This document shows, piece after piece, positions 4,934 through 60,036 of a stretch of DNA of 64,000 nucleotides (within the stretch, counting starts at the first letter, position 1; each line of letters begins with the position of its first letter). Under the pieces are notes generated by a model, which saw nothing but the letters and a program-made list of their open reading frames with translations, searched no databases and was not told the DNA's origin. The translations under genes and the position numbers were made by a program. The stretch is from Candidatus Nomurabacteria bacterium. GTDB taxonomy: Bacteria; Patescibacteriota; Minisyncoccia; Phycocordibacterales; UBA918. The DNA is taken from positions 733,366 to 797,365 of the forward strand of contig JACKGF010000001.1 of assembly GCA_020632095.1 (NCBI GenBank), given 5' to 3'.

Positions 4934-6226
4934 ATGAATTCATTAAATTTTCTTTTTATTTCTTTTTCAGGTCTCCATGTTGATTTAGCTTGGCATGTTC
5001 AAAAAGAAGGTCACGCGGTTAAGTACTATATTAGAGACAAGTCTGATCTGACTGTCGGTGATGGATTTGTTAATAAAGTAACTGACTGGAAAGCAGAGGT
5101 TGACTGGGCAGACATCATTATATTTGACGATGTTCTTGGTCAGGGTGAAATGGCTGAAAAATTGCGCAAACAAGGAAAATTAGTTGTAGGAGGCACTAGA
5201 TACACCGACAAACTTGAGGACGATCGTTCGTTTGGACAAGATGAATTAAAAAAACTCAAAGTAGGAATTTTACCCTACAAAGAGTTTACAGACTTTGATA
5301 CAGCTATCACTTATGTAAAAGAACATCCTGATGAATACGTAATCAAACCAAGTGGTGAAGCACAAAATATCAAACGGCTACTATTCGTTGGGGTGGAAGA
5401 AGACGGTTCTGATGTGTTAAGAATGCTTGAAGCGTACAAAAAAGTCTGGAGTAAGGTTATTAAAGTTTTTCAGTTACAAAAGAAAGTGAACGGCGTTGAA
5501 GTGGGGATAGGCGCCTTTTTCAACGGTAAAAAGTTTGTTGAGCCAATTAACATTAATTTTGAACACAAGAAACTATTTCCTGGTAACGTCGGTCCAGCAA
5601 CCGGAGAGATGGGCACGAGTATGTTTTGGAGTGCACCTAATAAACTCTTTGCAAAGACGTTAAAAAAAATGGAGTCCAAACTAGCCGAGGAAGGATTTGT
5701 TGGCTACATTGATATCAACACCATTGTAAATGGTAATGGGTTATATCCGCTCGAGTTCACTTCCCGCTTTGGATATCCTACTATCCAAATACAAACTGAC
5801 AGCATGACAACCCCAGTCGGTGAATTTTTGTATAACTTAGCTTCCGGTCACGACAATCCATTCAAAGTACGTAAAGGATTTTCAGTTGGAGTACGAATGG
5901 TTGCTCCTCCCTATCCGTATGGTGACCAAAAGATTTTTGACTCTCACTCAAAAGATGCGGTCATCGTATTCAAAAAACCTGGCAAAGAAGGTATCCATAT
6001 CCATGATGTTCGTGATGTGAATGGAGTTTGGTCACTTACTGGAAAATCTGGCTTGGCGTTAGTGGTGGTTGGACAGGGGCTAACAATGCAACAAGCCAAA
6101 CAACAAGCCTACCGTCGGATTCAAAATATTTTAATTCCTAATGTTTATTATCGGAGTGATATTTCAGACCGTTGGGCAGAAGACAGCGACAAATTACACA
6201 GCTGGGGTTACCTACACGAGTTATAG
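4934..6226 (+). CDS. PurD-like ATP-grasp enzyme (phosphoribosylamine--glycine ligase family)
   Basis: N-terminus SGLHVDLAWHVQKEG resembles PurD GGREHALAW. HKKLFPGNVGPATGEMGT resembles the PurD GPNTGGMG loop. C-terminal EFTSRFGYP resembles EFNCRFGDPE. Confidence 0.55.
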   Translation: MNSLNFLFISFSGLHVDLAWHVQKEGHAVKYYIRDKSDLTVGDGFVNKVTDWKAEVDWADIIIFDDVLGQGEMAEKLRKQGKLVVGGTRYTDKLEDDRSFGQDELKKLKVGILPYKEFTDFDTAITYVKEHPDEYVIKPSGEAQNIKRLLFVGVEEDGSDVLRMLEAYKKVWSKVIKVFQLQKKVNGVEVGIGAFFNGKKFVEPININFEHKKLFPGNVGPATGEMGTSMFWSAPNKLFAKTLKKMESKLAEEGFVGYIDINTIVNGNGLYPLEFTSRFGYPTIQIQTDSMTTPVGEFLYNLASGHDNPFKVRKGFSVGVRMVAPPYPYGDQKIFDSHSKDAVIVFKKPGKEGIHIHDVRDVNGVWSLTGKSGLALVVVGQGLTMQQAKQQAYRRIQNILIPNVYYRSDISDRWAEDSDKLHSWGYLHEL

Positions 6227-7292: not shown

Positions 7293-7886
7293 ATGCAAGT
7301 TATCGGCTTGACTGGAAATATCGGTTGCGGGAAAAGTACGGTCTCTTCCCTACTCTCACGACTTCCCCAAGTACTTGTAGTTGATTCTGATAGTTTAGCT
7401 AAAACTATTCTGTCTGATCAGCGCCATAAAAATTCATTGCAGAAAATTCTTGGTGAAGAGGTTTTTGAATCAGATACAATTAATTTTAAACGAGTAGCTC
7501 AGATTATTTTCCACAACAAACTAACCCGCGTGAAACTTGAAAAATTCATTCACCCTTTGGTTTGGACCAGCATAGACAAAATAGTTAAAGAAACACCAAG
7601 CAACACCTTAGTCATAGTTGAGTCCGCCATCATCTATGAAACCAAAATGGAATCATATTTTGGTGGAATAATTGTGGTCACTTGCCCAACAGATGTGCAA
7701 TTTTCCAGACTCACTACATTTAGAGGAATGAGTTCTGAGCAAATAAAAGCTCGTCTTAGTCAGCAGATTAGTTCAGCTGAAAAAGTCGTTCGAGCTAATT
7801 ATGTAATCGATACCGACTGCACACTAGATGAACTCAAACAACGTGTCTTCAATCTATATAAACAAATCAAAGGAGGACAATCATGA
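7293..7886 (+). CDS. coaE: Dephospho-CoA kinase
   Basis: MQVIGLTGNIGCGKSTVSSLL P-loop and overall CoaE pattern. Its TGA stop overlaps the coaD ATG (ATGA). Confidence 0.8.
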   Translation: MQVIGLTGNIGCGKSTVSSLLSRLPQVLVVDSDSLAKTILSDQRHKNSLQKILGEEVFESDTINFKRVAQIIFHNKLTRVKLEKFIHPLVWTSIDKIVKETPSNTLVIVESAIIYETKMESYFGGIIVVTCPTDVQFSRLTTFRGMSSEQIKARLSQQISSAEKVVRANYVIDTDCTLDELKQRVFNLYKQIKGGQS

Positions 7887-43580: not shown

Positions 43581-44675
43581 CTACTTATTCATTGGCATTA
43601 CTAAATACCGAAGACTTTTATCGGTTGAACCTTGCATAATTACAGCTCTTCCAATACCAGCAAAACTTAATACGACTGAATCATCATTAATATGAGACAA
43701 AGGATCCATTATGTATTGTTGATTAAAATTAAGAGTTAATTCCTCACCATCAACAGAAGCTTTTAAAGTATCAGTAGTATGTCCAACTTCATTATTTTGT
43801 GAAGAAATAGTCAGATTACTGTCAGTAACAGTTAATGATACCTGTCTGAACTTATTAAGAAAAATATTAGTCTTTTTGAATGACCTAAGTAAGTCATCTT
43901 TTAAAACGGTCACATGAGACACGAATTCCTTAGGAATTATTTGAGCGTAGTCAGGAAAATTACCAGTCACCAACCGTGAAGTAATGTACACTCCTCCCGG
44001 AAAGCGTAGAGCACACTGATTTTCATTAATAACTAAGATAGGATCTTCTCCGATAGAGTCACAAACCTTTGCTAACTCAACAGCGTTCTTTTGAGGTACC
44101 ATTATTGACTGCTCTAAAACTAAACCTTTTTGGGGAATAGTTTTTTCCATCAACCTGAAAGAGTCTGTTGCTACAAAAGTTAAAGAATGTTCTTTTTTTT
44201 GTTGAATAAATACACTCCCTAACTCTGGCTTAATAGAGGTCTGAGAAGCCGAAAATGCCACGCTCTTGATTCCATAAGCAAAAGTCGACCCTTTGATAGA
44301 CAGCTCTTCTCCTTGTAACTGGTGAAGGTTAGGAAACTCATCCACTGAGAAGGTTTTGATAGATGTGCTAGTTGAAACAGTTTCCAATTGAAGAACCTGA
44401 TCCTCTGTTCTAAGTGTCACATCTTTCTGTGAGATAAACTGAATACTTTGTAGAAAAATTTGAGTTGGTACAGCTACTACTCCATCTTCATTAATAACTC
44501 CTTCCACCGGAATCTCAATACTGATTTCTAGGTTGGTTGCTTGAAAAGTAACCTTACCTTCTTTGGCTTCTAACCGAACACATTGAAGAACTGGCAAGGT
44601 CACATGCTTGGTACTTATTCGACTAACAAGCTCTAACGCTTTGACTAGTTGGTTGTGTGGAATAGTTATCTCCAT
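43581..44675 (-). CDS. dnaN: DNA polymerase III beta sliding clamp
   Basis: 364 aa. MEITIPHNQLVKALELVSRI..., three-domain repeat, C-terminal LRYLVMPM. Confidence 0.9.
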   Translation of the reverse strand: MEITIPHNQLVKALELVSRISTKHVTLPVLQCVRLEAKEGKVTFQATNLEISIEIPVEGVINEDGVVAVPTQIFLQSIQFISQKDVTLRTEDQVLQLETVSTSTSIKTFSVDEFPNLHQLQGEELSIKGSTFAYGIKSVAFSASQTSIKPELGSVFIQQKKEHSLTFVATDSFRLMEKTIPQKGLVLEQSIMVPQKNAVELAKVCDSIGEDPILVINENQCALRFPGGVYITSRLVTGNFPDYAQIIPKEFVSHVTVLKDDLLRSFKKTNIFLNKFRQVSLTVTDSNLTISSQNNEVGHTTDTLKASVDGEELTLNFNQQYIMDPLSHINDDSVVLSFAGIGRAVIMQGSTDKSLRYLVMPMNK

Positions 44676-45029: not shown

Positions 45030-46460
45030 TTATTTAAGGAGTAGTCTAACTTGAGTAATCTCTTCTTCCAGTTCTCCATTATGTTTCAACTCCCCTTTTA
45101 TCTTCTCGCAGGAGTGAATAACGGTAGTGTGGTCGCGACCACCAAGTTTTTTACCGATAGCTGGATATGAAACTTGAAAATCTTCCCTAAGAATATACAT
45201 GATAATTTGTCGTGGTTTTACTACTTCCTTACGGCGAGTCTTTTCGTATATGCTGGCTTGGTCAATATCGTAATAACGAGCCACTTTTTCTACCACATCG
45301 GTAATAGCGAGAGTTTTTCTTGGGCGAGAACTATTTTTGATAATTGTTCTAACTTCTTCAATTGAAAGGGTGCGACCAAGGAGTTGTGATTGACACATAA
45401 TGGTGTTAAGGGCACCTTCTAGTTCGCGTACATTACCTTCAATACTCTCAGCTAAGTGATCGACTACGTCATCACTAAGGACAATGCTGTTCTGAGCTGA
45501 TTTTGCACGTAGGATAGCTGCTCTAGACTCAAGGTCGGGAGCAGGTAGGTCAACAATCATCCCTTGGGCAAAACGAGACTGAAGTCTTTCTTCCATTCCG
45601 TTTAGTAAAGCGGGATGTTGATCACTAGAGAAAACAATTTGTTTGTTGTTGTCGTGGAGAGCATTAAAGAGGTGAAACAGTTCTTCCTGCGTCTTTTCTT
45701 TGGTAGCTAAGAATTGAATGTCATCCATGATCAATACATCATATTGACGATACTTATCTTTAAAGTTGTTGGCTGTACCACTTTGGAGAGCATTAAAGTA
45801 ATCGACGGCAAATCGTTCGCTGGTAACATAGAAAACTTTCTTACCAATCTTCTTGATATGGTTCCCTACCGCTTGGATAAGATGGGTTTTACCGTGACCA
45901 GTTTTTCCATAAATAAATAATGGGTTATAAGTGATACCTGGTTTTTCACTCACTGTTTTAGCAGCAGCGTGAGCTAAGGCGTTGTATGGTCCAACCACAA
46001 AAGTGTCGAAAGAATATTTTGGGTTAAGGTTATCACTCTTGTTTATATAATAGTCTTCTAGGGGTAGAGCTGCGTTAACAGTTTGGTTTTTAGTTGACTC
46101 TTGTTTTTTATCGTTTCTTTGGGCAACCGTATATTCAACACTTCTGACATGAGGAGTAAGGTCACGAAGAGTTTTAAGGATCATGGTTTGAAACTTATCT
46201 TGTAGCCAGTCTTTAACAAACACACTTGGTACTCCAATAGTGGCAGTACCGTCTTCTAGGGCAACGATATGAGTATCTCTAAACCAAGTTTTGAAGTTGG
46301 CTGTAGTAATAGAAAGTTCTATTTTCACTAACGCATCATCCCAAAGTTGTTTTACATCGACTTGTTCAGTATGAACAATACTGTTGTGTGAGGATTGATG
46401 AGTGTGAGTTATAGAAGAATTCATAAAGTTAGATAGATTCGCCCCAAAATCTTGTAGCAA
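45030..46460 (-). CDS. dnaA: Chromosomal replication initiator DnaA
   Basis: Walker A GKTGHGKTHL, Walker B VLIMDDIQF, sensor and box VII motifs, C-terminal DnaA-box-binding HTH (GGRDHTTVIH). The true start may be an internal Met. Confidence 0.9.
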   Translation of the reverse strand: MLQDFGANLSNFMNSSITHTHQSSHNSIVHTEQVDVKQLWDDALVKIELSITTANFKTWFRDTHIVALEDGTATIGVPSVFVKDWLQDKFQTMILKTLRDLTPHVRSVEYTVAQRNDKKQESTKNQTVNAALPLEDYYINKSDNLNPKYSFDTFVVGPYNALAHAAAKTVSEKPGITYNPLFIYGKTGHGKTHLIQAVGNHIKKIGKKVFYVTSERFAVDYFNALQSGTANNFKDKYRQYDVLIMDDIQFLATKEKTQEELFHLFNALHDNNKQIVFSSDQHPALLNGMEERLQSRFAQGMIVDLPAPDLESRAAILRAKSAQNSIVLSDDVVDHLAESIEGNVRELEGALNTIMCQSQLLGRTLSIEEVRTIIKNSSRPRKTLAITDVVEKVARYYDIDQASIYEKTRRKEVVKPRQIIMYILREDFQVSYPAIGKKLGGRDHTTVIHSCEKIKGELKHNGELEEEITQVRLLLK

Positions 46461-47180: not shown

Positions 47181-47906
47181 ATGAATTATATTTGGCACAC
47201 GTTCTTTTTTGACCCAATTTACAACGCGCTAGTTTTTTTTATTGATGTTATCCCAGGTGGTGATGTGGGACTAGCTATTATCGCTACTGTCTTAGTGGTA
47301 AAAACCATTCTCTTGCCAGTTTCTATTAAAGCCGCTAAAACTCAGCGAATAATGAAGGAGCTTGAGCCTAAACTAAAAGAGATTAAAGAAAAACATAAAG
47401 ATGATAAGCAGGTGCAAGCTCAAGCGATGATGCAAACTTACAAAGATGCGGGAATGAATCCTTTTGCCAGTATTTTCTTAATTTTTCTTCAGCTCCCAAT
47501 TATTATTGCTCTATACTACTCAGTCTCAAGAGGAGGAGGAATTCCTTTACCAGAAATAAATACGGACTTACTTTATTTTTTTGTAGAAACTCCAGTTAGG
47601 GTAACAATGGACTTTTTGGGAATGATTGATATTACAGGTAAGAGTGTCTTATTGGCGCTTGGTGCGGGTGTGACGCAGTTTATCTACATTAACCTGTCGA
47701 TGCCCAAGTTACCACCTAAAGAAGAAGGGGCGGAGCCAAGTATTAAAGATGACTTCATGCGCAATATGCAAACTCAAATGCGCTACGTAATGCCGGTTTT
47801 AATCACCTTCGTCGCCTACTCTATCTCCGCCGCTATCGCTCTCTATTTCCTTGTTAGTAACTTAACCATGATTGCACAAGAGTTTTATGTAAAGAAACAC
47901 CGGTAG
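47181..47906 (+). CDS. yidC: Membrane protein insertase YidC (short Oxa1-like form)
   Basis: Conserved TM1/TM2 with ILLPVSIKAAKTQRIMKELEPKLKEIKEKHKDDKQ...MMQTYKDAGMNPF...LQLPIIIALY. Confidence 0.85.
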   Translation: MNYIWHTFFFDPIYNALVFFIDVIPGGDVGLAIIATVLVVKTILLPVSIKAAKTQRIMKELEPKLKEIKEKHKDDKQVQAQAMMQTYKDAGMNPFASIFLIFLQLPIIIALYYSVSRGGGIPLPEINTDLLYFFVETPVRVTMDFLGMIDITGKSVLLALGAGVTQFIYINLSMPKLPPKEEGAEPSIKDDFMRNMQTQMRYVMPVLITFVAYSISAAIALYFLVSNLTMIAQEFYVKKHR

Positions 47907-47974: not shown

Positions 47975-48754
47975 TTACTTATATTTGGTGCAGGAGACAA
48001 TCCCGTTGTACTCACGAGCCTCTGCTTCTCCTCCAGCTCTTTGACAAGCTTTCATAGCGGCAGTACAGTCGTATGTATTATTTCCAACAGGGTCAGTTCC
48101 TGTAAGGAGACAATCGAATGTACTCGGTCGTTTTTTAGCTGCTCGTACAATACAGGTGCCTAGTTGATCGCTGCCGGGTGGTGGTGGAGTATATTCTCCT
48201 TGATAACAAGCTGCTTCAGGATTTGGTGAAAATGGGTTGTAGTTAGAAGGGCATCTGCCAGGCACAACATTTTCACAAATATTTTTTGCTTCTGCCGCAT
48301 CTCTAATAATACCGGATCTCAAAGGCATAAATTCATCTCCTAAGGGTAGCGAAACAGGGCTACTGGTAGTTATAACACGTGGCGAGCTTGGTATTGGGAT
48401 CGGGTCAAAGGTTACGTTAACATTATTTATGTCTGGATTGATGACAGTTATTATGATTACAGCCGCTAGGATTACCAATAACCCTAGTACAGCACCTTGA
48501 ATATCTTTCTTAGCAGACCCTTTGTCGGTAACAACATCAGACATCATCCACTTAACTCCAGCAATTACTATTTTAATTACCGCCAGGAGAGCCGCAATAC
48601 TGATTGAGAGAGCGTACAGAGCGTTCATATACGCGTCAAATCCCGAGTTAGGATTTACCCCAGGGATACCCACCAAAGGAGTATAACCAGCAGCAAAAAT
48701 TAAGGAAGGGGCGGCTGCTAGAATAAAAACGATTATTGTAATGATTTTTTTCAT
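47975..48754 (-). CDS. VirB2/TrbC-like pilin with a C-terminal cysteine-rich extension
   Basis: Signal peptide MKKIITIIVFILAAAPSLIFA, then two hydrophobic helices separated by a short charged loop (ALYALSISIAALLAVIKIVIAGVKWMM / SDVVTDKGSAKKDIQG / AVLGLLVILAAVIIITVI), the TrbC/VirB2 fold. Then ~120 aa with 10 Cys and PPPP. Confidence 0.45.
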   Translation of the reverse strand: MKKIITIIVFILAAAPSLIFAAGYTPLVGIPGVNPNSGFDAYMNALYALSISIAALLAVIKIVIAGVKWMMSDVVTDKGSAKKDIQGAVLGLLVILAAVIIITVINPDINNVNVTFDPIPIPSSPRVITTSSPVSLPLGDEFMPLRSGIIRDAAEAKNICENVVPGRCPSNYNPFSPNPEAACYQGEYTPPPPGSDQLGTCIVRAAKKRPSTFDCLLTGTDPVGNNTYDCTAAMKACQRAGGEAEAREYNGIVSCTKYK

Positions 48755-48764
48755 GATAATTAAG

Positions 48765-49973
48765 TTACTCAGTTTCTGGTAAAGGTTGTAATCGCTCAAA
48801 CATCCAGAGGTTTTGGTTGTTTTTGTTTACAAAGTAAATATTTACATCATCGTGACCAAACTGTAGGTTGGTTATGTCCAAAGACTGCCCACTTTCTGAT
48901 TGGGTGTTTGACAAGGAAGAAACCCCTTGTTCAGTCATTTTCGATTCCCAGAGGTTATCAGATAAATTAACCTCACCACTATACCAAGTGTCCGGAGTTT
49001 CTCTGTTGTAGGTGTTTGGTGTTTCAGCACATACCACTAGAGAAGAAGTGTTTTCACTAAAGGCACATTTTTCAGGAATAACAGTAATAGGAAATTCAAC
49101 GTAATCATTATATTCATGAAGGTAGAGATATGTTTGGTATCTTTCCTTGTCTTGTCTACTAAACACGACCCCGCTCTCATTTCCTTCAGCGGAAAGACCA
49201 AAACCATCAATTGGCAGACGACTAACCTTTCCTCCTTTTATCTCATATAAAAACCCTTCTAGTTTACTGCTAGCTTTCGGGTAGGCGAAGTGAGTATCCT
49301 TTTCTGTTTTTCCCCAGTCAATCACTGCTTCACGGAAAGGGATTGTAAATAAGTCTTTAGAGGTTTGTTTTACTGGGTCAAATGACTTACCGATAACCGA
49401 TCGGTCAGTTTTAACAGCATACAAAAAAGTGTTGTCAGTAGTAGCTTTAAAGCTGATAATTGGTTCAGTTATAGTGTAGACACTAGAGTCGCTTGAAGAG
49501 GCCGAGTCAAGTTTTTTGATGTTGTATTCACTACTAAAACCGCTACCGGACTGAATCATTACGTATTCACCATCTAAAGTAATGCTACCTTTTTGGCTGC
49601 TTGGGAAGGTGGTAGCTGATACTCTCTCTTCTTCCCCACTAGTTAGGTTAATAGAAAAAACGTGTCCCGTACCAGCTTCGATATAGTAGACAACAGGGGT
49701 GGAAGAAGCGTTTTTCATTACTTCACGGTAACCAATAATTGGTTTGGTAGTGAGTTGACGAAGTCTTTTAGAGGTAGAAACATTCACTGTTGGTTCATTG
49801 TCTAATGTAGGTTCTTCATTAATGATTGATGTGTCAGTAGTGTCGCCAATTGATAGGTCACCAAAAACCTCGTCAACATTCTTAGGTGTGCCAAAAAATA
49901 AAACCCATATCCAGATAGCGACTAGGATAATTATTAGTACTACTCCAATGACGATAAATACTGTGCGTTTCAT
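48765..49973 (-). CDS. Hypothetical membrane-anchored secreted protein (putative secretion-system component)
   Basis: N-terminal TM (VFIVIGVVLIIILVAIWIWVLF). Ser/Thr-rich, predicted beta-rich ectodomain. Confidence 0.35.
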   Translation of the reverse strand: MKRTVFIVIGVVLIIILVAIWIWVLFFGTPKNVDEVFGDLSIGDTTDTSIINEEPTLDNEPTVNVSTSKRLRQLTTKPIIGYREVMKNASSTPVVYYIEAGTGHVFSINLTSGEEERVSATTFPSSQKGSITLDGEYVMIQSGSGFSSEYNIKKLDSASSSDSSVYTITEPIISFKATTDNTFLYAVKTDRSVIGKSFDPVKQTSKDLFTIPFREAVIDWGKTEKDTHFAYPKASSKLEGFLYEIKGGKVSRLPIDGFGLSAEGNESGVVFSRQDKERYQTYLYLHEYNDYVEFPITVIPEKCAFSENTSSLVVCAETPNTYNRETPDTWYSGEVNLSDNLWESKMTEQGVSSLSNTQSESGQSLDITNLQFGHDDVNIYFVNKNNQNLWMFERLQPLPETE

Positions 49974-49977
49974 AATA

Positions 49978-50943
49978 CTAGAAGTTTATTAGAATATTAC
50001 TCTGTGCCCCTTGTAAAATTTGTTTGGTGTCTCGAACATGAAATTGAACGCTTGATTGTCCGAAGGTTCCTGTTCTCTGTAGAGTGACTTCATACGGGTT
50101 CCCTCCAAAATCAGTAGATTTATTACCATTAACTTTCCATTCTTTAATATCTGGATTGTTGTAGACCCGAGAATCAAGGTTGTATGGTTCAGCGCGCACG
50201 GTCACACTATTACCGATTAGAGATAAGTTTTTAGCGATTGGTTTTTGGCTGATACCGAATAGAGAGCTAACTTCATAAAAATGTACTTCCGGTGCAACAG
50301 AAGGAATACTGACCGCCCTTTTTGCTAAAACCACCCCTCCAGGTTCGGTTACTTGTAGGTAAAGTGAACTATAGTCGCCGATTGGGGTGGTAAAAGAGAT
50401 TTGATTTCGACCCCTAATTGGCCCACCTTCAAGAACTTGGTTGTTTAGTCTCCAAGTGTAAACAAGGTCAGAATCCCTAAATCCACTATCGCTCACCAAC
50501 GCAGTAGCGTTAACAATACTACCAATACTTGGTAGTGAACGGCCGAGATAAAAGTCTGGGGTTCTGGTTTGAGGTTCGATGATTATGTCTAAGTAAATAG
50601 GATTGATGGTATTTTGTAGAATCACTCTAGAACCCTGAGGTGTATTTAAGACAACTTTAATATTTTGAGTCTTACCAGCTTCTCCTGCTATTATTTTTAC
50701 TTCTCGTTGATTTTCCGCTTCTTCAATAACTTGATCATCTAACAGCCAAGTAATTTTAGATCCGTAAGTGCTTCCTTGATAGTCTTTGAGGGTGGCTGTG
50801 ACTTCTTCACCAGGTCTTGGATATTCTGGTTTAGTTTCGATGGTTGACTCAGGGTTGGTAAGTGAATTTGTGTCCAATTGAGCTAGCGCTGGGGAGGCGC
50901 TTAAGCTGACTATGGTTATTAAAAATATTATTAGTGTCCTCAT
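49978..50943 (-). CDS. Hypothetical secreted protein with repeated beta (Ig-like) domains
   Basis: Signal peptide MRTLIIFLITIVSLSASPALA. Internal repeat ...ITW/YTW...L(D/N)(D/N)QV(I/L)E... Confidence 0.35.
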   Translation of the reverse strand: MRTLIIFLITIVSLSASPALAQLDTNSLTNPESTIETKPEYPRPGEEVTATLKDYQGSTYGSKITWLLDDQVIEEAENQREVKIIAGEAGKTQNIKVVLNTPQGSRVILQNTINPIYLDIIIEPQTRTPDFYLGRSLPSIGSIVNATALVSDSGFRDSDLVYTWRLNNQVLEGGPIRGRNQISFTTPIGDYSSLYLQVTEPGGVVLAKRAVSIPSVAPEVHFYEVSSLFGISQKPIAKNLSLIGNSVTVRAEPYNLDSRVYNNPDIKEWKVNGNKSTDFGGNPYEVTLQRTGTFGQSSVQFHVRDTKQILQGAQSNILINF

Positions 50944-51034
50944 ACCATAATCATACCAGACCATAAGACACAAGAGCCCAGTTTAGTGCGTTTGTTTGGG
51001 ATATCTCCAAACACCATAAATTAATTATCCAAAT

Positions 51035-51967
51035 TTATTTTGGTCGTAACCAAATAATCATAGTCCAAATCATAAACCAAGGAAGTAAGTTTAGGACTGG
51101 TGTAAAGTATCCAAAAAAACATAGTATAAATACAAAAATCTTAATACCAGAGCTTTTACCTGAAATCGGTTCAAAACCATTTAGTTTGTATATGAGATAA
51201 ATAATTAAAAGCACCGCTATGCCGAATATAAATATTATTAACTCAGTTACCATAAAAAGATTAATAGGGTCAAGGACTGATACATTGATTCCAAATACAG
51301 CTTCCGAAATCTTTCCTGCCACTTCAAGTAGACGACTGGCGGCATAGTGAATACCTTTATATAAAAAATTACTGTTAGGGTTTGGAGTAACAATTTTTTT
51401 AATTGAGTCAAGAGCGCCAGCCAGAGCGAAAAAAACAATATTTAACAAAGCAAAAGGTAATTGAAATAGAAACCAGGAGGGTATTGCCCACGACCAAATA
51501 CTACCAGTCACAGTGGTTGCACGACCCCGCATAAGAAGCGTGGCTGAGGTACCCTTTATTGATAATTTACCAGACTTAAGTTTTTTAGGGGTGACTATTG
51601 GTTGGGTTGAATAGGTTACATTGGCTTTTCTGGTTGTTTCCTCAGAGCGATTTATTTGCTGTACAGGTTTATAGGGGTTATTTTTAGGGTCTTCTATAGA
51701 TGAGGGTTGTAAACCTTGTTTTGCGTAAGAGGCTTGGAAATTCTCATGGGTAGGGGTAATAGAGCTGGTGGGTTGTTGTTTGGTTGGTGAACCAGGCGTA
51801 TTTGAAGATCGGGTGGTTTCCGATCTAACGTTTCTTACCTCTTGTCCGCTTGTTGCACTAGAAGAATAAGCTAGGGTCGGGCGAGTTCCTGGTCCGTATT
51901 TAGGGTCGTTAACCGCTTTTGGGTATCGCTCACTATATCGCTCATCTTTTTTTTGCGGAACCGCCAT
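51035..51967 (-). CDS. Hypothetical polytopic membrane protein with a disordered N-terminus
   Basis: ~150 aa S/T/P/Q-rich N-terminus, then four or more TM helices. Confidence 0.35.
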   Translation of the reverse strand: MAVPQKKDERYSERYPKAVNDPKYGPGTRPTLAYSSSATSGQEVRNVRSETTRSSNTPGSPTKQQPTSSITPTHENFQASYAKQGLQPSSIEDPKNNPYKPVQQINRSEETTRKANVTYSTQPIVTPKKLKSGKLSIKGTSATLLMRGRATTVTGSIWSWAIPSWFLFQLPFALLNIVFFALAGALDSIKKIVTPNPNSNFLYKGIHYAASRLLEVAGKISEAVFGINVSVLDPINLFMVTELIIFIFGIAVLLIIYLIYKLNGFEPISGKSSGIKIFVFILCFFGYFTPVLNLLPWFMIWTMIIWLRPK

Positions 51968-51981
51968 ATACTAAAAGTATA

Positions 51982-53784
51982 CTACATCCGTGAAGCTTGT
52001 AACTCTTCTCGGGCTTTTCTGATTTGGAGAATTTGTGATGGGTCGGAAGTGATGATTTGTTCTTCAGTATAAGAAGCGATTATTTTTATTGCGACGTGTT
52101 TAAGGCCGGCAAAAAATATACCCTCTCCTACATTGGATTCAAGTAGCAAAAACTTTTCTTCATCAGTTAAATTAAAGGTTTTTTGGATGTTGTCGATAGC
52201 TGTTGGAGATTGTTTCATTAAGAGCTGAATTGATGAGTTGGTAATCATTGGTACTCCGTAAGGTGAACGAAGGAAATCGTCCACGTCTTGAGTGATGGTG
52301 GCTATACCTAGGTAATACTTTCGTCCTCGTTTTGCTAGACTAAACAAGAAAGAGGCGGTGTCTTCAGATTTCATCATCCACCAAGCTTCATCAATCACCA
52401 TTAAGCGCTTAACCATTCTTCGTCTGATTGATCCCCAGATGAAGTTAGTGATGATATACATGGCGATAGTTTTGAGCTCATCTTCCATGTCACGTAGGGA
52501 GAAAACCACGAATTTTTGATTAATGTCGACATTAGTGGCATGGTTCATGAAACCAGACCAGGTTCCAGCGGTGTATTTTTGGAGTCTAGTTATAAGTGAA
52601 GAACTACCATCCATACCAGCTAACACCATTTCAAAGTCAGTAAGTAATGGTGGTTCTAGGTTAGAGAAATTTGCATCACCGGTGATGTCTTTTAAAGCGT
52701 AGGTTTCTTGGATAGCAATATCAATCAAAGTTTCTTCTTCAGCAGTTAGGCCACCCAGCATTAGTCTGAATAAACCTACCAACTCAATAATGTGGGTACG
52801 GAGGACATCGCGGGGGTCCTCATCAGCGCTTGGTGTGGGAAGGTCAAAAGGATTTATGTGGTGATTAGACGATAAAGAAATGTTGAAAAAACGTCCACCA
52901 GTGGCTTCGGCTAAGTATTCATATTCTCGCTCTGGGTCGATTACAATCACTTCAGTACCAAACATTAAAGAGCGTAGAATCTCAAGTTTTAAGCCAAATG
53001 ACTTCCCTGCTCCAGAGGTGGCAAAGGTAACGGAGTTGTAATTTGTTAGACTGTAGCGGTCGAATAGTACTAGTGAAGAATTGTGTCGATTGACACCATA
53101 AAGAATTCCTGAATCCGAGGTTAAGTCGAAAGAAGTGAAAGGAAAAAAGCTTGAGAGGGGTTCAGAGTTGAACTTGCTGTGAACCATGAGTTCATCATTA
53201 GATAGCGGTAAAATACTTTTGAAGCCTGGTTCTTGTTGAAATAAGGCTGGCTTCATTGCTACTAAACGGGCATCAAGAATTCCACGAATATCATTTTCAA
53301 CCTGGTTAATTTCAGTGTCGGTTTCTCCATAGATGGTTAGGTAGAATCCTACATCAAATAACTTTTCCTCGGCTTGTTGTAGTTTGTCGCGCAGATCTTC
53401 AAGGTTTCGGTAAGCGGCTTCAAGTTGTGGGTCGCGCACCTCCCCTTTTTCCGCTTTGATATTAATTTGGCTTTGCACCTCAGCGACTTTTTTTTGAAAT
53501 TTCTTTAAAGTTTCAGCCGTGTCAACGGGATGGATAAAAATTGATACGTCAAGTTCTTTAGCTAGGTTTAAAACCGGCTCCAGCCAACCGTCGTTCAGGT
53601 ATCTTGGGTAAGAAACAGCATAATAAACTCTAGCATTTACTCCGCTAACATTAATACTTCTAGGACTCACATTAATAGCTGATGGTGCAATCACATCAGT
53701 TAAAGTGAGGAGTTGATCTTTAATCACATTAGAAGGGTCTTCACCTTGGTTTTTCTTGGGTTGTAGTAAATCTGCTAGTGACAT
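51982..53784 (-). CDS. virB4: VirB4/TrbE/CagE-family type IV secretion ATPase, C-terminal ATPase part
   Basis: Walker A TSGAGKSF, Walker B MVIDEAWWMM (DEAW), and GIATITQDVDDF (ATQ motif). Confidence 0.75.
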   Translation of the reverse strand: MSLADLLQPKKNQGEDPSNVIKDQLLTLTDVIAPSAINVSPRSINVSGVNARVYYAVSYPRYLNDGWLEPVLNLAKELDVSIFIHPVDTAETLKKFQKKVAEVQSQINIKAEKGEVRDPQLEAAYRNLEDLRDKLQQAEEKLFDVGFYLTIYGETDTEINQVENDIRGILDARLVAMKPALFQQEPGFKSILPLSNDELMVHSKFNSEPLSSFFPFTSFDLTSDSGILYGVNRHNSSLVLFDRYSLTNYNSVTFATSGAGKSFGLKLEILRSLMFGTEVIVIDPEREYEYLAEATGGRFFNISLSSNHHINPFDLPTPSADEDPRDVLRTHIIELVGLFRLMLGGLTAEEETLIDIAIQETYALKDITGDANFSNLEPPLLTDFEMVLAGMDGSSSLITRLQKYTAGTWSGFMNHATNVDINQKFVVFSLRDMEDELKTIAMYIITNFIWGSIRRRMVKRLMVIDEAWWMMKSEDTASFLFSLAKRGRKYYLGIATITQDVDDFLRSPYGVPMITNSSIQLLMKQSPTAIDNIQKTFNLTDEEKFLLLESNVGEGIFFAGLKHVAIKIIASYTEEQIITSDPSQILQIRKAREELQASRM

Positions 53785-53793
53785 AACTATTTA

Positions 53794-54435
53794 TTATCTA
53801 TTATCAACTATTGGAGCGCTCCCAGTCATATCGGCTGGATTATATAAGTGGTAAAACAGTTCGACCAAATCATCTTTTCCTAAAGAGATAGTTCTTACTC
53901 CTATCCGGGCTAATCCTTCTGATACCATGTCAACTCTTTGTTCAAGCTGAATCCGGTGTTCCTCGAACTGGAGATCATTTTGTGAAGATGATTGTTTTTG
54001 GGATTGAGAAAACATACTGGTGATTCCGCGAGTAATATTTAGTTTGGTTGGAGAGTAAGGAACAACTATAAAAAAGTTTTTACTCATAACATCAACATCT
54101 CTAGTGAATGAGCTGATAAATTCCATGTATTCCCGAAGTTGAATACGCATTAAATCATTATCTTGTTTTACCTCGAGACTTTGGAGAAGTTCTAAATAGG
54201 GTTCAATATTTAATTTTCTAGATTGAATATAGATTTGTAAAGAAAAATCTATAGTATTAAGAAATTGCTGAAATTGCATCAAAATTGCTTTTTGCTCATC
54301 TAATGATTTTAAAGCAAAGTTAATTGAAGAAGCCAAAAGCAACATACACATTTGACCGTTCTTTTGGATTATGACATCGTCACGAATATCTTTAATAGAG
54401 ACGAAATCTTGAGTGGCAGCTTGAGCTTTTGGCAT
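53794..54435 (-). CDS. virB4: VirB4 N-terminal domain encoded as a separate ORF
   Basis: VSIKDIRDDVIIQKNGQMCMLL...EQKAILMQFQQFLNTIDFSLQIYIQSRKLN matches the N-terminal domain pattern of Gram-positive-type VirB4 (PrgJ/TcpF-like). Same frame as the downstream ATPase ORF, separated by TAA TAA. Confidence 0.55.
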   Translation of the reverse strand: MPKAQAATQDFVSIKDIRDDVIIQKNGQMCMLLLASSINFALKSLDEQKAILMQFQQFLNTIDFSLQIYIQSRKLNIEPYLELLQSLEVKQDNDLMRIQLREYMEFISSFTRDVDVMSKNFFIVVPYSPTKLNITRGITSMFSQSQKQSSSQNDLQFEEHRIQLEQRVDMVSEGLARIGVRTISLGKDDLVELFYHLYNPADMTGSAPIVDNR

Positions 54436-54436
54436 A

Positions 54437-54865
54437 TTATTCCTTTTTTTGTAAGGCTTGTAATTCTAGTTTTTTAGCTAGTGAAGCGATGTTATTTTTA
54501 GGTCGTGCTGGATTTATTAAAGAGGGGTCAGTGCCTGTACGGGTTGAATTTGGTTGACTTGGGGCTGAGGTTTTGTAGACAGTATCAGTTTTTTGACGCC
54601 ATAAGTACAGCCTTTGACCTCTTATATAGTTGTAGATAGCTTCTAGAAAAAAAGAAAAAGGTCGGTTGTTGACTGGGTAAAATGCCAGAGCCCCTGCCAG
54701 TAGAGCTAGCGGAATACCTAGAAAAATAAAAAGAAACAGGGGTAGCGTAAAAAACATTACGACGGCCATACCAACTCCCCCTCCAAGATAAAGGAACTGA
54801 CGCCAAGTAAGAGGGCCAAAAATTTTATCTTCGATATCTATGAATTGAGGAACTTCAAAACGCAT
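54437..54865 (-). CDS. PrgI/VirB3-like small membrane protein
   Basis: FEVPQFIDIEDKIFGPLTWRQFLYLGGG then two TM helices. Located immediately upstream of VirB4, as PrgI is. Confidence 0.5.
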   Translation of the reverse strand: MRFEVPQFIDIEDKIFGPLTWRQFLYLGGGVGMAVVMFFTLPLFLFIFLGIPLALLAGALAFYPVNNRPFSFFLEAIYNYIRGQRLYLWRQKTDTVYKTSAPSQPNSTRTGTDPSLINPARPKNNIASLAKKLELQALQKKE

Positions 54866-54918: not shown

Positions 54919-55443
54919 TTACTGACCCCAACTCGGGGCTGAGGCTTCTGGTTTAGTTCGTCCTTCATTTAAGATAGCTGATTGGGTTGAGGTGTAGGTA
55001 GGGATGTGGCTTTGAGCCTGTTGCAGTTCCACATCATTAGCCATAGTGCGAACATGGGGGATGTTCGGCAGATTAGAAAGTGAAGCCTCTGCTTCAGCTA
55101 TATCTAAAGCCATGGCGGCATCCTCAGAGGAATTATATATTTCTGCTTGAGTGGTTAGTATCTCCAGCGCATTATTTATTTCTGTCGAAACCACGGTAGA
55201 TATTTCTGTAGATAGTCCCAAGTTTTGACTGAGAATTGAAGGGAGTTCGACTGGTTTTGACAAATCTAAGATCATATCACCAACTACGAGAATAAATTTG
55301 TTGTAGTTAGTATCATCAGTCAAGTTGTACTTTTCAGCAATTTTCCACAGGGCTTCCCCACTCTCAGGGGAAGCGTACAAAAATTTATTAGTTTCAGAAG
55401 CAACTTCGTAAGCAGCGTTGCGTTGTTGATTAGTGATAGACAT
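54919..55443 (-). CDS. Hypothetical soluble protein within the secretion cluster
   Basis: 174 aa, no TM, no recognisable motifs. Confidence 0.3.
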   Translation of the reverse strand: MSITNQQRNAAYEVASETNKFLYASPESGEALWKIAEKYNLTDDTNYNKFILVVGDMILDLSKPVELPSILSQNLGLSTEISTVVSTEINNALEILTTQAEIYNSSEDAAMALDIAEAEASLSNLPNIPHVRTMANDVELQQAQSHIPTYTSTQSAILNEGRTKPEASAPSWGQ

Positions 55444-55458
55444 AGTTTAAATTGCGAC

Positions 55459-57756
55459 TTAAGGAATTGGTCTTCCGTATTGATCAAGTAGTCCAGAGCC
55501 TGGAGTAGGAGCCGTGTCCTCAGGGTTGTTCCAGTTTAGTCGGCCATGGGCGCTCTTTAGGTAGTTTTGAGCGGAAGTGATGTTTGGATTGGCTGGGCCA
55601 TTGTAATTCTTTATCTTTGTCTTCAATTCTTCACGATCGTCCGCACTTAGAGTGTTGTTTCCGTAGATTGCTTCTAACACGTTACCGTTTATGTACGGTA
55701 AGGCATTATCACTTAACAATGCATCACGTGAAAGCTGGGCAATATCAATAGCTTTTTTAGGTTTGTTAGGTGCTGTGGTAAATAACTCAGAAACCTTCGC
55801 TGAATCATTTGCAGTAGATTTTTGTAGGTTACTACGCTCAGTAAGTTGTGCCATTTTTTGTCCATCTGTGAACTTATCACTCTTTTGCAGATCATCCATT
55901 TGCTTCTTGGTAAAGAGGTGGGCATTTTCTTTAATAAAGTTATCACCCAAAGTCTCCATTTGCTTAAGGGAGAGCTTGGTTAATTCCTCATTCCGGTTCT
56001 TACCATTACTTGTTAGTGAGGCCTCGATAGCTTTCTGACGAGCGTCTAGAAGTTCAGCTTTTTGATCTTGTGTCAACCCATCACTATCCATCATTTTATC
56101 GAAATCAGATGACTTAATATTTCCGATAATCTTTTCAAACTGTTCTGGTTGTTGACTCATCATCTCTTCAAGTTGAGTAGCTGAGTAACCGGCAACTGTT
56201 TGTTGCATAGTGGCGATTGTTTTCTCTTCAGCCTCTTCAGCCCTCTTTAGGGTGTCGGCATCAGTAAGGCTGCTCTTATCTACTGTTTGGCCATTATGAA
56301 GTACCTGACCGTTCTTCTTACGTTCTTCGGCCGCGATGCCAGCTTCTATAGCCACGTTGTTTCTCTGTCTGGTGTCAATTATAGAACGCTTCTTGTTTTC
56401 CTCGGCAATGGTATTACTCAAGCCGAACTTAGCTTCCTTAAGACTTTTTGCCTTATCTCGAACAGCGTCATCCATTCCAACTCGACTGCCTACCCACCGA
56501 ACCGCACCATTATTAGATCGTTGCATCCTGTTAAGACCCTTCTCGAGACTTGATCCAACTTTGTAAGACAATCTTCTACCAGCCAATCCTCCTCCATATG
56601 CTACTGGAGCGGCAACTGTTCTAGCCGTGGCTCTGGTGGTCGCAATAGCTCCCCGCTTTAAACCTTGTTGAGCTTTGCTTTTTATACTATTACCAATTCT
56701 TAAGGCCGCACCAGCGCCATCGGCGCCTAGTTTGTTGGCTACTACCACCGATGCAATAAGGAAAATTGACGATAGGATAAAGGGAGGGATTGTGCTTTCA
56801 AAAGTACTACTAATCTGGCTACCACTACCAGCAAGAACGGCTCGGAAGTCCTTGATACTACCCATTGATCCACCAGTACCGAAAAAGTTTTGAATAATCA
56901 TGGTAGAAAAGTAGACAAGTAATATGTATACCGGGGCAAAAAATGACTTGCCTAAAAAACCTTTCCAGTAAGTGGAGGTAACACTTTGCATTTGTGGGAA
57001 AACCCAACCAAGAAACATTAAGGGAGACAAGACCATATACAGACATAGTGCAGCGTAACGTATCATCAACATTAAACCGCCTGCAGCAAACACAAAAATA
57101 GCGACCATGTATAAGAGAGCTGTACCAAAAATGTAACCGTAAAGAGTGCCATCACTCATATTCGGAGGCAAGCCATATGAACCGCCTCCCCCAAAGAGGG
57201 TGGTGATTCCAAAGTTACTCATTAAAGTGGTAGATACTTCCACTAATCCATTATTTACAACAAAGCCACCCAGAGCAATCTGTGAAGCTAGAGAGTTTGA
57301 TATATCTACAATAAATTTAGTAATATACAGACTAAAGTTTACTAACAGTGCGGCGAGGATTAGGTTGATTAGCCAGCGTTTGGTACTAGAGTCGTCACTG
57401 TTGAGAATCATCTTAAATCCGATATAAATCAAGCCAAAGATAAAAGTTAGATTAAAGATGTCTCTTACGTTTACCCAGAGTTTATCAACCACAACCCCTA
57501 CTCCCGTATTTAGGAACTGAAATCCAAATCCAATCACAAATGTGTTGATTCCTGCGTCTAAAATCATTCCTGCTAGTCCAACAAACAAACCTAAGACATT
57601 GTTTACCAACGCCCATAAAGTGTCTTGGAAGAAACCAGCCGACACGGTTGAAGGAGACAACAGAAAGAAAGGTATGACTAGTAGGGCGGTTGGTAGATAT
57701 TTCTTTAAAAGGCTCATAATTTCATTCACATTTATTATCTCAAAATAGTTTGCCAT
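55459..57756 (-). CDS. VirB6/TrbL-like polytopic membrane protein with a long C-terminal coiled-coil/charged tail
   Basis: Signal/TM N-terminus, ~7 TM helices with Gly-rich loops (GGGGSYGLP), then ~380 aa K/E/Q-rich helical tail. Confidence 0.45.
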   Translation of the reverse strand: MANYFEIINVNEIMSLLKKYLPTALLVIPFFLLSPSTVSAGFFQDTLWALVNNVLGLFVGLAGMILDAGINTFVIGFGFQFLNTGVGVVVDKLWVNVRDIFNLTFIFGLIYIGFKMILNSDDSSTKRWLINLILAALLVNFSLYITKFIVDISNSLASQIALGGFVVNNGLVEVSTTLMSNFGITTLFGGGGSYGLPPNMSDGTLYGYIFGTALLYMVAIFVFAAGGLMLMIRYAALCLYMVLSPLMFLGWVFPQMQSVTSTYWKGFLGKSFFAPVYILLVYFSTMIIQNFFGTGGSMGSIKDFRAVLAGSGSQISSTFESTIPPFILSSIFLIASVVVANKLGADGAGAALRIGNSIKSKAQQGLKRGAIATTRATARTVAAPVAYGGGLAGRRLSYKVGSSLEKGLNRMQRSNNGAVRWVGSRVGMDDAVRDKAKSLKEAKFGLSNTIAEENKKRSIIDTRQRNNVAIEAGIAAEERKKNGQVLHNGQTVDKSSLTDADTLKRAEEAEEKTIATMQQTVAGYSATQLEEMMSQQPEQFEKIIGNIKSSDFDKMMDSDGLTQDQKAELLDARQKAIEASLTSNGKNRNEELTKLSLKQMETLGDNFIKENAHLFTKKQMDDLQKSDKFTDGQKMAQLTERSNLQKSTANDSAKVSELFTTAPNKPKKAIDIAQLSRDALLSDNALPYINGNVLEAIYGNNTLSADDREELKTKIKNYNGPANPNITSAQNYLKSAHGRLNWNNPEDTAPTPGSGLLDQYGRPIP

Positions 57757-59138
57757 TCTGATTCAGTAGCTTTGTATTGGCTGGCTGGATACAAGGTTAG
57801 TTTGGTGTATTCAGAAATGGCGTCATTTTGTGCATTTACATCACCAGCAGCCACGGCAGCATCAAATCTAGCTATTATTAAATTGAGAGCACTTACGTTT
57901 GTGGTGGTTTTATTGATTACTTCTAATGCATCATTGTAGGCTGCTGCTGCCTGAGCCGCTCTGTCTGGTCGGACCAAAGGATTAACAGAATAGGATTGAA
58001 GAGCAGGGGCATAATTATTGGCTAGGTTTCTGTAATTTGTCTCCGTTACAAGGGCGTCTGACATTAGCTTTCTTGATTCAGCCGGGCTTAGTCCAGGGGT
58101 AGCTTGTCCAACGGCACTAGTGTAAGAACCACCACTATAACCTGAGTAGGTGTAACCTGTACCGCTAGAGAGACCTAGTAGTCCAGATGCTCCAGTTAAG
58201 GCCTTGTTAGCTATTTGGCCTATTAAAGCAGAAATAACCTCGTTGATTTCATCTGCTGAGATTAGACTTTGGCGACCAGAATCTAGGTTGAAAGACAAAG
58301 CTTCTTCTATAATTTTGCCTGGCTTGGTGATAAAACACTCCTCTCTGTCTGCGCCAGCGCCATGAACTATTTCACAAATCTCTCCTGATAGAAAACCATC
58401 GCCAAAATCAAGTAAAGAATATTGTTCACCTTTGGCATTGATAACCCTAGCTTGGCCTCCTATTTGACCAGACAAGATTGCCCCGTATGGTGTGTAGGTT
58501 TGCGGGGTGGCGGTGATGGTGAACCAGTCAGCCCAGCCTCCTTGAGAGAAGTCTCCAGCAATAAATTGTTCAAAATTACCTACAATACCACTTAAGCTAC
58601 AAGTTGGAGCCGGTTGATCAGTTCGTTCTCGGTTGTACTGGAGAGCTACTGATATCTGCACATCAAGTCTAAAGGGTGCACAGATAAAAGAGCCGAAAGA
58701 ACCCAACTCACTAATATATGTCCCGATCGCTTCATCAGCTGCCTGTAGTAAAAATCCACTCAAATCCTGAACAAAAGCTGGGCTACCCTGAAAACCAGAG
58801 TTAATCCAGTCAACAAGACTTTGTACCATTGAGGAAACCACCCTTTTAGCTACAGCCCAAGCGATGCCATCAAGAATGTTTTCTTTCATCCAATTATTTC
58901 CAGTCATAGTAGCTGTAATGCTGTCAAAATACTTAGAAGCAGTAGTGGCCGCATTAATAATTCCTAGTTGAACATTGTTTAGCCATTGAGTTGGTTCGAG
59001 CGCTCCTCCAGTCATTCCTCCAGCCTCTACGGTACTGATGTGGTTGTACGGCTGAGGGATATAAGTGGCAGAAAAACCAAAAATAACAAAAATTATTGCT
59101 ATTAAACCCTTTTTAAGAATTGAAAAAAATGTATCCAT
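57735..59138 (-). CDS. Hypothetical membrane-anchored secreted protein
   Basis: N-terminal TM. Gly/Ser/Tyr-rich segment (GTGYTYSGYSGGSYTSAVG). No family recognised. Confidence 0.3.
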   Translation of the reverse strand: MDTFFSILKKGLIAIIFVIFGFSATYIPQPYNHISTVEAGGMTGGALEPTQWLNNVQLGIINAATTASKYFDSITATMTGNNWMKENILDGIAWAVAKRVVSSMVQSLVDWINSGFQGSPAFVQDLSGFLLQAADEAIGTYISELGSFGSFICAPFRLDVQISVALQYNRERTDQPAPTCSLSGIVGNFEQFIAGDFSQGGWADWFTITATPQTYTPYGAILSGQIGGQARVINAKGEQYSLLDFGDGFLSGEICEIVHGAGADREECFITKPGKIIEEALSFNLDSGRQSLISADEINEVISALIGQIANKALTGASGLLGLSSGTGYTYSGYSGGSYTSAVGQATPGLSPAESRKLMSDALVTETNYRNLANNYAPALQSYSVNPLVRPDRAAQAAAAYNDALEVINKTTTNVSALNLIIARFDAAVAAGDVNAQNDAISEYTKLTLYPASQYKATESEWQTILR

Positions 59139-59148
59139 AAGCTAATAA

Positions 59149-60036
59149 TTAATTTTGGTAATTAGGACTAAACATAATAAATAAAACAGCCGGGTCATCA
59201 GTGGTAAAAAGACTAGATTTTGGTTCGAGAGCTAGGTACAAATTTTGCAAAGCATAGCCAAGACCCTCAGCGTCATCCTGGTATCTTTTCAAGCGAAGCA
59301 AGGTGAAGGCCGGGTCATCCAAAACCTTTGTCATAGCCTCAATATCCATATGGACAGCGTGAAATGTGTTGATTATATCTAAGTGTTCTTTAACCAAAAA
59401 AGCAGGTACAGGGGTGTTTAGAAAGTCATCACGATTACGTCGGTAGCCCTCGGTGAGAGATTTAAGTCCAGTCAGCCCATTGCTATCGTCACTTTTTAGG
59501 AGTTCGTCAAGAATTGCCAACTCATTTTTAACATCAGGCACATTATTTCTTAAAAGTGTGCCAGCCATAGTATTAGCATAATTAACTATGTCCTGATCAT
59601 TCCATTCTTTAAGGACGATGATGTCTGGGGTATCATAAAGGTCGTGGGCAGTTTCTTTACTTAGAATATCGACTGTATCGCTAATTACTTGTTCCTGACT
59701 GCGTCCGAACGGGCCATAACCCTTTGCTCTAATGATATCCTCCATAAAGTTTATTCCTAATTGACCAGTTAGAGTTTCAGGGGGAACATAGGTAGAGTCT
59801 TGTTTCTCTAATATTACTGGCTTAGTAGTTATAAACTCGTCTCTCCAGTCTTCAATACCATTTCCATCATCATCACTTACTTCGATGGCTACTCGAGGGG
59901 AGGGCTTCGCTGCCAGAACGGCTGCCTGATGAGAAATTTTAGGTGCATTAAAATTACTTAATACATAAGAGCCAGCAACTAAAGCAAAACCGATGATTGC
60001 TGAGCCGACTATTTTTGGGTTGATATTTCCCTCCAT
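59149..60036 (-). CDS. Hypothetical membrane-anchored protein, first gene of the secretion cluster
   Basis: N-terminal TM (IVGSAIIGFALVAGSYVL). Acidic DDDGNGIEDWRDEF segment. Confidence 0.3.
   Translation of the reverse strand: MEGNINPKIVGSAIIGFALVAGSYVLSNFNAPKISHQAAVLAAKPSPRVAIEVSDDDGNGIEDWRDEFITTKPVILEKQDSTYVPPETLTGQLGINFMEDIIRAKGYGPFGRSQEQVISDTVDILSKETAHDLYDTPDIIVLKEWNDQDIVNYANTMAGTLLRNNVPDVKNELAILDELLKSDDSNGLTGLKSLTEGYRRNRDDFLNTPVPAFLVKEHLDIINTFHAVHMDIEAMTKVLDDPAFTLLRLKRYQDDAEGLGYALQNLYLALEPKSSLFTTDDPAVLFIMFSPNYQN

Follow-up and report, generated by a model that had tools for sequence, protein, structure and literature searches.

In the staphylococcal conjugative plasmids pGO1 and pSK41, whose type IV secretion systems (T4SSs) are of the MPF_FATA type, the gene for a protein that resembles the N terminus of VirB4 (TrsD) directly precedes that for the VirB4-like ATPase (TrsE). 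TraD and TraE of pIP501 form an equivalent pair. By contrast, VirB4 is one polypeptide in the CD1110 family of Firmicutes, in R388 (TrwK) and in Agrobacterium. Here we analyse a 64,000-nucleotide (nt) stretch of a Candidatus Nomurabacteria bacterium genome (NCBI GenBank assembly GCA_020632095.1, contig JACKGF010000001.1, positions 733,366 to 797,365 of the forward strand), referred to below as the window. On its minus strand, a TrsD-like open reading frame (ORF) of 213 amino acids (aa), ORF A (53794-54435), is followed by a 600-aa ORF for a VirB4-type T4SS ATPase, ORF B (51982-53784), and the two together cover the whole of a VirB4 protein. We conclude that a VirB4 made as two polypeptides from adjacent genes is very probably the normal and ancient architecture of the Patescibacteria T4SS, encountered here in a Candidatus Nomurabacteria/Paceibacteria genome.

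The remote homology of TrsD to the VirB4 N terminus was reported by Quinonero-Coronel et al. 2025 (PMC12102498), who found TrsD, within MPF_FATA, in the pGO1 subclass only. Using a hidden Markov model (HMM) of pGO1 TrsD, the same authors retrieved TrsD proteins from Patescibacteria and named TrsD 'the most abundant T4SS component' of the phylum (2,272 homologues in 2,221 assemblies, 1,664 of these homologues associated with virB4; PMC12102498). They treated it as a separate component of unknown function, not as 'a split VirB4', and listed it as essential in Ca. Southlakia epibionticum ML1; Patescibacteria T4SSs were also found often to lie near dnaA and mostly to be without a relaxase (PMC12102498). 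The locus in the window has in common with these systems the phylum, the gene set (VirB4, TrsD, PrgI/VirB3 and pilin-like genes) and the origin-proximal site; nothing of substance differs, and the locus is one instance of this already described arrangement. As a discovery it amounts to little: the pair of TrsD and VirB4 was already on record for Gram-positive plasmids of the pGO1 type, and since 2025 it has also been described as the commonest T4SS feature of Patescibacteria. The additions made here to the published picture are small, namely the coordinates at which the two ORFs tile a VirB4 profile, a fold match and a rare fused form. The T4SS itself is biologically important, since a cultivated relative cannot grow epibiotically without it, and the present finding does not add to that importance. 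The Patescibacteria T4SS of Ca. Southlakia epibionticum was reportedly the subject of work by Wang et al. in 2023.

In pSK41, the 227-aa trsD product is separated by a 14-nt gap from a 672-aa VirB4-like ATPase, which is annotated at the trsE position as a 'DUF87 domain-containing protein'; the corresponding values in the window are 213 aa, 9 nt and 600 aa. A small gene lies just upstream of the pair in both, and in the window it belongs to the PrgI family. Unlike the systems of the conjugative plasmids pGO1 and pSK41, the system described here is chromosomal and lies beside dnaA. It is probably not conjugative, since Patescibacteria T4SSs are mostly without a relaxase (PMC12102498). A Clostridium perfringens plasmid has the same gene order as the window, with PrgI followed by VirB4, but its VirB4 is a single protein of 783 aa. 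Fusions of VirB3 to VirB4, which have been reported in some conjugative systems and were not found in Patescibacteria (PMC12102498), run in the opposite direction, that is, fusion and not fission, whereas PrgI is a separate gene in the window; such fusions likewise show that the module boundaries of VirB3 and VirB4 are evolutionarily plastic.

ORF A and ORF B as parts of VirB4

Read along the minus strand, the junction between the two ORFs runs ...GAT AAT AGA TAA TAA ATA GTT ATG TCA... ORF A ends at a TAA codon (53796-53794) that is followed at once by a second TAA (53793-53791), the tandem stop pair spanning 53791..53796, and ORF B begins at the ATG at 53784-53782. Between the first TAA and this ATG lies a 9-nt spacer (53785..53793), of which the second TAA is part. 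The distance from the first base of the stop pair to the ATG is 12 nt, which places ORF A and ORF B in the same reading frame. An earlier note on the window had described the tandem TAA TAA, the ATG at 53782-53784 and the shared frame, and a direct read of the strand agreed with that description throughout. A remark in the same note about TGA recoding was set aside as irrelevant, because the stops at the junction are TAA.

ORF B was assigned as a VirB4-type T4SS ATPase from NCBIfam, Pfam and PDB matches. With 364.7 bits (E 9.4e-109), it exceeds the curated cut-off of 325 set for the NCBIfam model NF045971, which describes VirB4-like conjugal transfer ATPases of the CD1110 family. It carries the Pfam domains PF19044 P-loop_TraG (E 1.9e-28), AAA_10 and DUF87, and matches the VirB4 C-terminal domain in PDB entry 4AG5 (E 3.3e-40). 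Walker A (TSGAGKSF) and Walker B (LMVIDEAW) motifs are present in its translation, and plasmid homologues share 32-36% identity with its ATPase domain. The alignment to NF045971 is confined to positions 163-732 of 752, and the ORF B polypeptide does not hold a complete VirB4 N-terminal domain: positions 1-162 of the model are absent from it and are provided by ORF A. Similarly, residues 330-735 of R388 TrwK align to residues 149-546 of ORF B, and because residue 149 corresponds to TrwK residue 330, TrwK is longer than ORF B by ~180 N-terminal residues. Relative to full-length VirB4, ORF B thus lacks ~165-215 N-terminal residues.

ORF A was assigned from Pfam, NCBIfam and fold comparison; in the source record, the exact protein is entered as 'hypothetical protein H6784_03835 [Candidatus Nomurabacteria bacterium]'. 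It corresponds to positions 1-167 of 752 of NF045971 (E 4.6e-4), such that this one VirB4 model is tiled by both ORFs (ORF A, 1-167; ORF B, 163-732), and to positions 101-264 of 894 of the mycoplasma VirB4 model NF045975 (E 4.9e-10). Precomputed Pfam tables place PF26593 'TraC-like' on ORF A and on all its homologues. When compared by hhalign, a profile of 55 ORF A homologues matched pSK41 TrsD (probability 81%, E 1.2e-5, 167 columns, ~19% identity) and residues 18-192 of the 783-aa VirB4 of the C. perfringens plasmid (E 4.8e-5). It is this profile-profile comparison, together with synteny and the published HMM survey, that justifies the label 'TrsD homologue' for ORF A.

The structure predicted for ORF A by AlphaFold2 had a predicted local distance difference test score (pLDDT) of 90.1 and a predicted template modelling score (pTM) of 0.81. 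Its tail, residues 200-213, was of low confidence, and these last ~14 residues place the cut between the two ORFs in a flexible linker. In a Foldseek search of the PDB with this model, the top 14 matches were all R388 TrwK/VirB4 with a probability of 1.00, and the next match had a probability of 0.21. The template modelling (TM) scores of ORF A against TrwK were 0.40-0.62, normalised to the query, in an output that does not report the aligned TrwK residues.

One relative carries the two parts as a single protein. This contiguous A+B protein of 797 aa (P0165) is encoded in a metagenome-assembled genome (GCA_964615945.1, contig CAZTUR010000004.1; locus L058, 544-2937), sits in the same PrgI-VirB4 context near dnaA and is colinear, in one stretch, with positions 18-725 of TIGR00929 VirB4_CagE. 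No other observation proves so directly that ORF A and ORF B add up to one VirB4. Among the 150 best representatives of a library clustered at 50% identity, it was the only fused TrsD-VirB4 seen. The ATG-GG with which ORF B usually begins is still present at its junction (...GRQG-MGG...), and this points to a secondary re-fusion by loss of the stop. It may also be an assembly artefact, as it comes from one contig of one sample.

The arrangement is very probably as follows. An operon-like string carries the PrgI/VirB3-like gene, then the TrsD-like ORF A and then the VirB4 ATPase ORF B. ORF A is an autonomously folding module equivalent to the first ~170-215 residues of full-length VirB4, and ORF B contains the rest of the N-terminal domain and the P-loop ATPase domain, the cut between them falling in a flexible linker. 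At the cytoplasmic face of the membrane, the two products would come together again without a covalent link and, with the VirB3-like PrgI, build the ATPase complex that drives the T4SS. Cryo-electron microscopy of the R388 system reportedly has VirB3 and the tails of VirB8 bound to the N-terminal domain of VirB4. The very short spacer would link the synthesis of the two proteins by co-transcription and possibly by re-initiation.

Conservation of the split and of the junction

Homologues of ORF A number 2,628, and the best 120 of them (71-100% identity) are all 210-221 aa in length. In the 50%-identity clustered library, 149 of the 150 best representatives stand alone (112-443 aa, down to ~32% identity), the exception being the 797-aa protein described above. 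A subset of the stand-alone homologues, including P0141 (356 aa), P0197 (406 aa), P0232 (443 aa) and about 35 others, carry C-terminal tails of 100-230 residues that are of low complexity and rich in Pro, Ala and Gln. Such added tails indicate that the detached N-terminal module evolves additions of its own.

The locus was also compared with that of 57 species-representative genomes labelled Paceibacteria, Kaiserbacteria, Nomurabacteria and Parcubacteria, with some labelled Saccharibacteria or other taxa. Together with the window, these loci (L001-L057) give 58 junctions, in which ORF B was taken to start at the conserved ATG that lines up with residue 1 of the query. Two separate ORFs are present in all 57 relatives. 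ORF A is 57-77% identical there, and both proteins are conserved at 57-86% identity. ORF A is closed by a stop in every relative, and ORF B always has its own ATG, usually as ATG-GG. Over the 58 loci, ORF B departs from full length or normal size only where it runs off a contig end or is interrupted by a masked N-run. An ORF B of 810 aa in L009, apparently fused to the downstream gene, and one of 80 aa in L046 were both discarded as artefacts of masked N-runs in the stored contigs; such runs call for caution in automated surveys of junctions. On this comparative evidence, the split is genuine and kept by selection, and is neither an error nor a recent nonsense mutation.

The 58 junctions share two further features. 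ORF A and ORF B never overlap, with 1 nt or more between them at each junction, and the stop that closes ORF A is TAA at 45 loci and TAG at 13, and never TGA. Short ATGA overlaps between genes do occur elsewhere in the window, for example at 7883-7886.

A sequencing or assembly error that placed false stops in a continuous gene is a general possibility in a metagenome-assembled genome, and nothing beyond this generality speaks for it. Five independent assemblies, which differ in sample and pipeline (ENA ERZ28655857, NCBI GCA_020428725.1, and Logan SRR8206192, SRR14234111 and SRR12358676), share the 60-nt junction base for base, along with the exact 213-aa ORF A protein, and the junction thus cannot be put down to such an error; a stop is also conserved among the relatives. 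We regard this explanation as extremely improbable. No more credence is due to recent pseudogenisation, by which a nonsense mutation would have broken a once-continuous virB4 in this genome only. Two ORFs in the same frame and 9 nt apart do have the look of a fresh nonsense mutation, and one relative has a continuous 797-aa gene. Yet pseudogenisation would appear as a disruption in a single lineage with decay of the fragments, whereas every locus has both ORFs, each on its own, and in all 57 relatives, the most divergent at 57% identity, they are intact. Furthermore, the pairs occur in each of the three possible frame relations, the ATG-GG at which ORF B starts is conserved, stand-alone homologues of ~213 aa exist in thousands, and TrsD has been reported as essential in a cultivated relative. 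Programmed read-through or stop recoding, which would give a fused VirB4 beside or instead of the two proteins, is allowed by the in-frame layout in this genome, and one relative evidently gets by with a fused form. Selection for read-through would preserve the frame, yet the spacer, which ranges from 1 to 82 nt (median 7), has a remainder of 0, 1 or 2 modulo 3 at 19, 19 and 20 of the 58 loci, as chance alone would have it; the frame of the downstream ORF is not conserved with that of the upstream ORF. Moreover, two stops in a row would work against read-through, not for it, the first stop varies between TAA and TAG from genome to genome, and ORF B always keeps its own ATG. We therefore consider read-through very improbable.

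An in-frame second stop is present at 7 of the 58 junctions (12%). The uniform distribution of frames and the rarity of tandem stops indicate that both the frame and the doubled stop are incidental. As judged from the compared junctions, TAA TAA and the shared frame are without a role and are a state that this genome happens to have. A tandem stop followed by a same-frame restart is, on its own, no evidence of recoding or design. The earlier note had taken the small ORF to be the VirB4 N-terminal domain, an identity borne out by the NCBIfam positions, by hhalign and by the Foldseek matches to TrwK. It had also suggested that the split was real rather than an error or a single nonsense mutation, and had proposed alignment with homologues as a check. 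The split proved to be conserved, with separate ORFs in all 57 relatives and in nearly every one of the ~2,600 homologues, contradicting a scenario in which relatives are mostly uninterrupted. The significance that it attached to the tandem stop and the shared frame did not survive the comparison, and the known arrangement of TrsD and VirB4 had gone unrecognised. For annotation, ORFs of the ORF A type, often entered as 'hypothetical protein', are to be understood as a detached VirB4 N-terminal module, and to call the 600-aa ATPase truncated or a pseudogene would be a mistake.

Expression of the pair

Promoter-like and Shine-Dalgarno motifs were surveyed upstream of the 50 ORFs of at least 120 aa in the window. 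A TATAAT-like hexamer ends 6-9 nt before the start codon in 17 of these 50 genes, compared with ~1.1 expected from the window-wide rate; examples lie upstream of the starts at 4934 (plus strand), 13458 (minus), 15493 (plus), 54865 (minus) and 51967 (minus). No Shine-Dalgarno motif was found in 43 of the 50. These figures suggest that leaderless mRNAs are widespread in this Patescibacteria genome. The missing Shine-Dalgarno motif before ORF B had been considered as a sign of coupling by termination and re-initiation, an argument that was dropped because most genes in the window lack one as well.

The survey bears on another explanation of the junction, in which the tandem stop would be a by-product of an internal -10-like promoter. 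ORF B would then be translated from a leaderless mRNA and expressed independently of ORF A rather than coupled to it. In favour of this explanation, besides the excess of such hexamers and the scarcity of Shine-Dalgarno motifs in the window, a -10-like GATAAT stands 8 nt upstream of the ORF B ATG, at exactly the spacing seen elsewhere, within A-GATAAT-AA and overlapping TAA TAA. However, the hexamer matches at five of six positions in an AT-rich, stop-containing spacer, where such matches come easily. A box at 6-9 nt before ORF B is present in only 13 of 58 relatives and thus is not a general feature, and in many relatives the spacer is 1-5 nt and leaves no room for one. We consider the explanation unlikely, although a weak internal promoter at the junction could be a minor, lineage-specific possibility. 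More doubtful again is an extension of the same idea, in which the TrsD-like ORF A would be an independently regulated adaptor and the GATAAT promoter would give a leaderless ATPase mRNA, such that the ratio of N-terminal module to ATPase could be tuned and the N-terminal module could evolve alone. The gap that is short everywhere (median 7 nt) is, for its part, compatible with translational coupling of ORF A and ORF B.

Several observations weigh against a two-polypeptide VirB4 whose parts are made and act together. The match of ORF A to the NCBIfam model for TrsD/TraD, NF041427, is weak (E 0.003, 17.4 bits against a cut-off of 200); by its sequence, ORF A is a remote relative of TrsD/TraD that lies below the curated threshold for membership. 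A local Pfam scan placed no family on ORF A, and the profile of 55 ORF A homologues gave no match to PDB sequences even at E 10, the link to TrwK being one of fold only (E ~1e-3). The -10-like box before ORF B could mean that ORF B is transcribed separately in this genome. Finally, we infer, rather than observe, both the binding of ORF A to ORF B and PrgI and the operon transcription and coupling of the two genes.

Gene neighbourhood

ORF A and ORF B are encoded alongside other T4SS genes. Two genes upstream of ORF B lies a gene for a small membrane protein of the PrgI family (VirB3-like, 142 aa; 54437..54865, minus strand; Pfam PF12666, E 1.4e-11, 45.2 bits against a cut-off of 27), and its stop is 1 nt before the start of ORF A. 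A PrgI gene also precedes the A/B pair in L058 and in L061-L063. Downstream of ORF B, after a 14-nt gap, is a gene for a 310-aa membrane protein (51035..51967, minus strand) with no family match; in L009, a homologous C-terminal membrane region follows the ATPase ORF. The PrgI gene, ORF A, ORF B and the downstream gene thus form a same-strand string with gaps of 1, 9 and 14 nt.

Further upstream, a 765-aa protein with a hydrophobic-rich N-terminal half and no Pfam or NCBIfam match is encoded at 55459..57756 (minus strand). The position of this gene upstream of PrgI is conserved in L061 and L062, and that its product might be a VirB6-like channel component is only a guess. The string includes other large genes on the minus strand without a Pfam or NCBIfam match (57735-59138, 59149-60036, 54919-55443 and 48765-50973), and its family-less genes presumably encode divergent membrane or surface components of the T4SS. 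At the end of the cluster, a 274-aa ORF (47975-48799, minus strand) is a possible VirB2-like pilin, with a T4SS_pilin match (E 6.8e-5, 23.3 bits) that does not reach the cut-off of 26.6. The immediate neighbours of the T4SS gene string are yidC (47181-47906, plus strand), dnaA (45030-46460, minus strand) and dnaN (43581-44675, minus strand), which mark the presumed replication origin, a location that matches the one reported for some Patescibacteria classes (PMC12102498).

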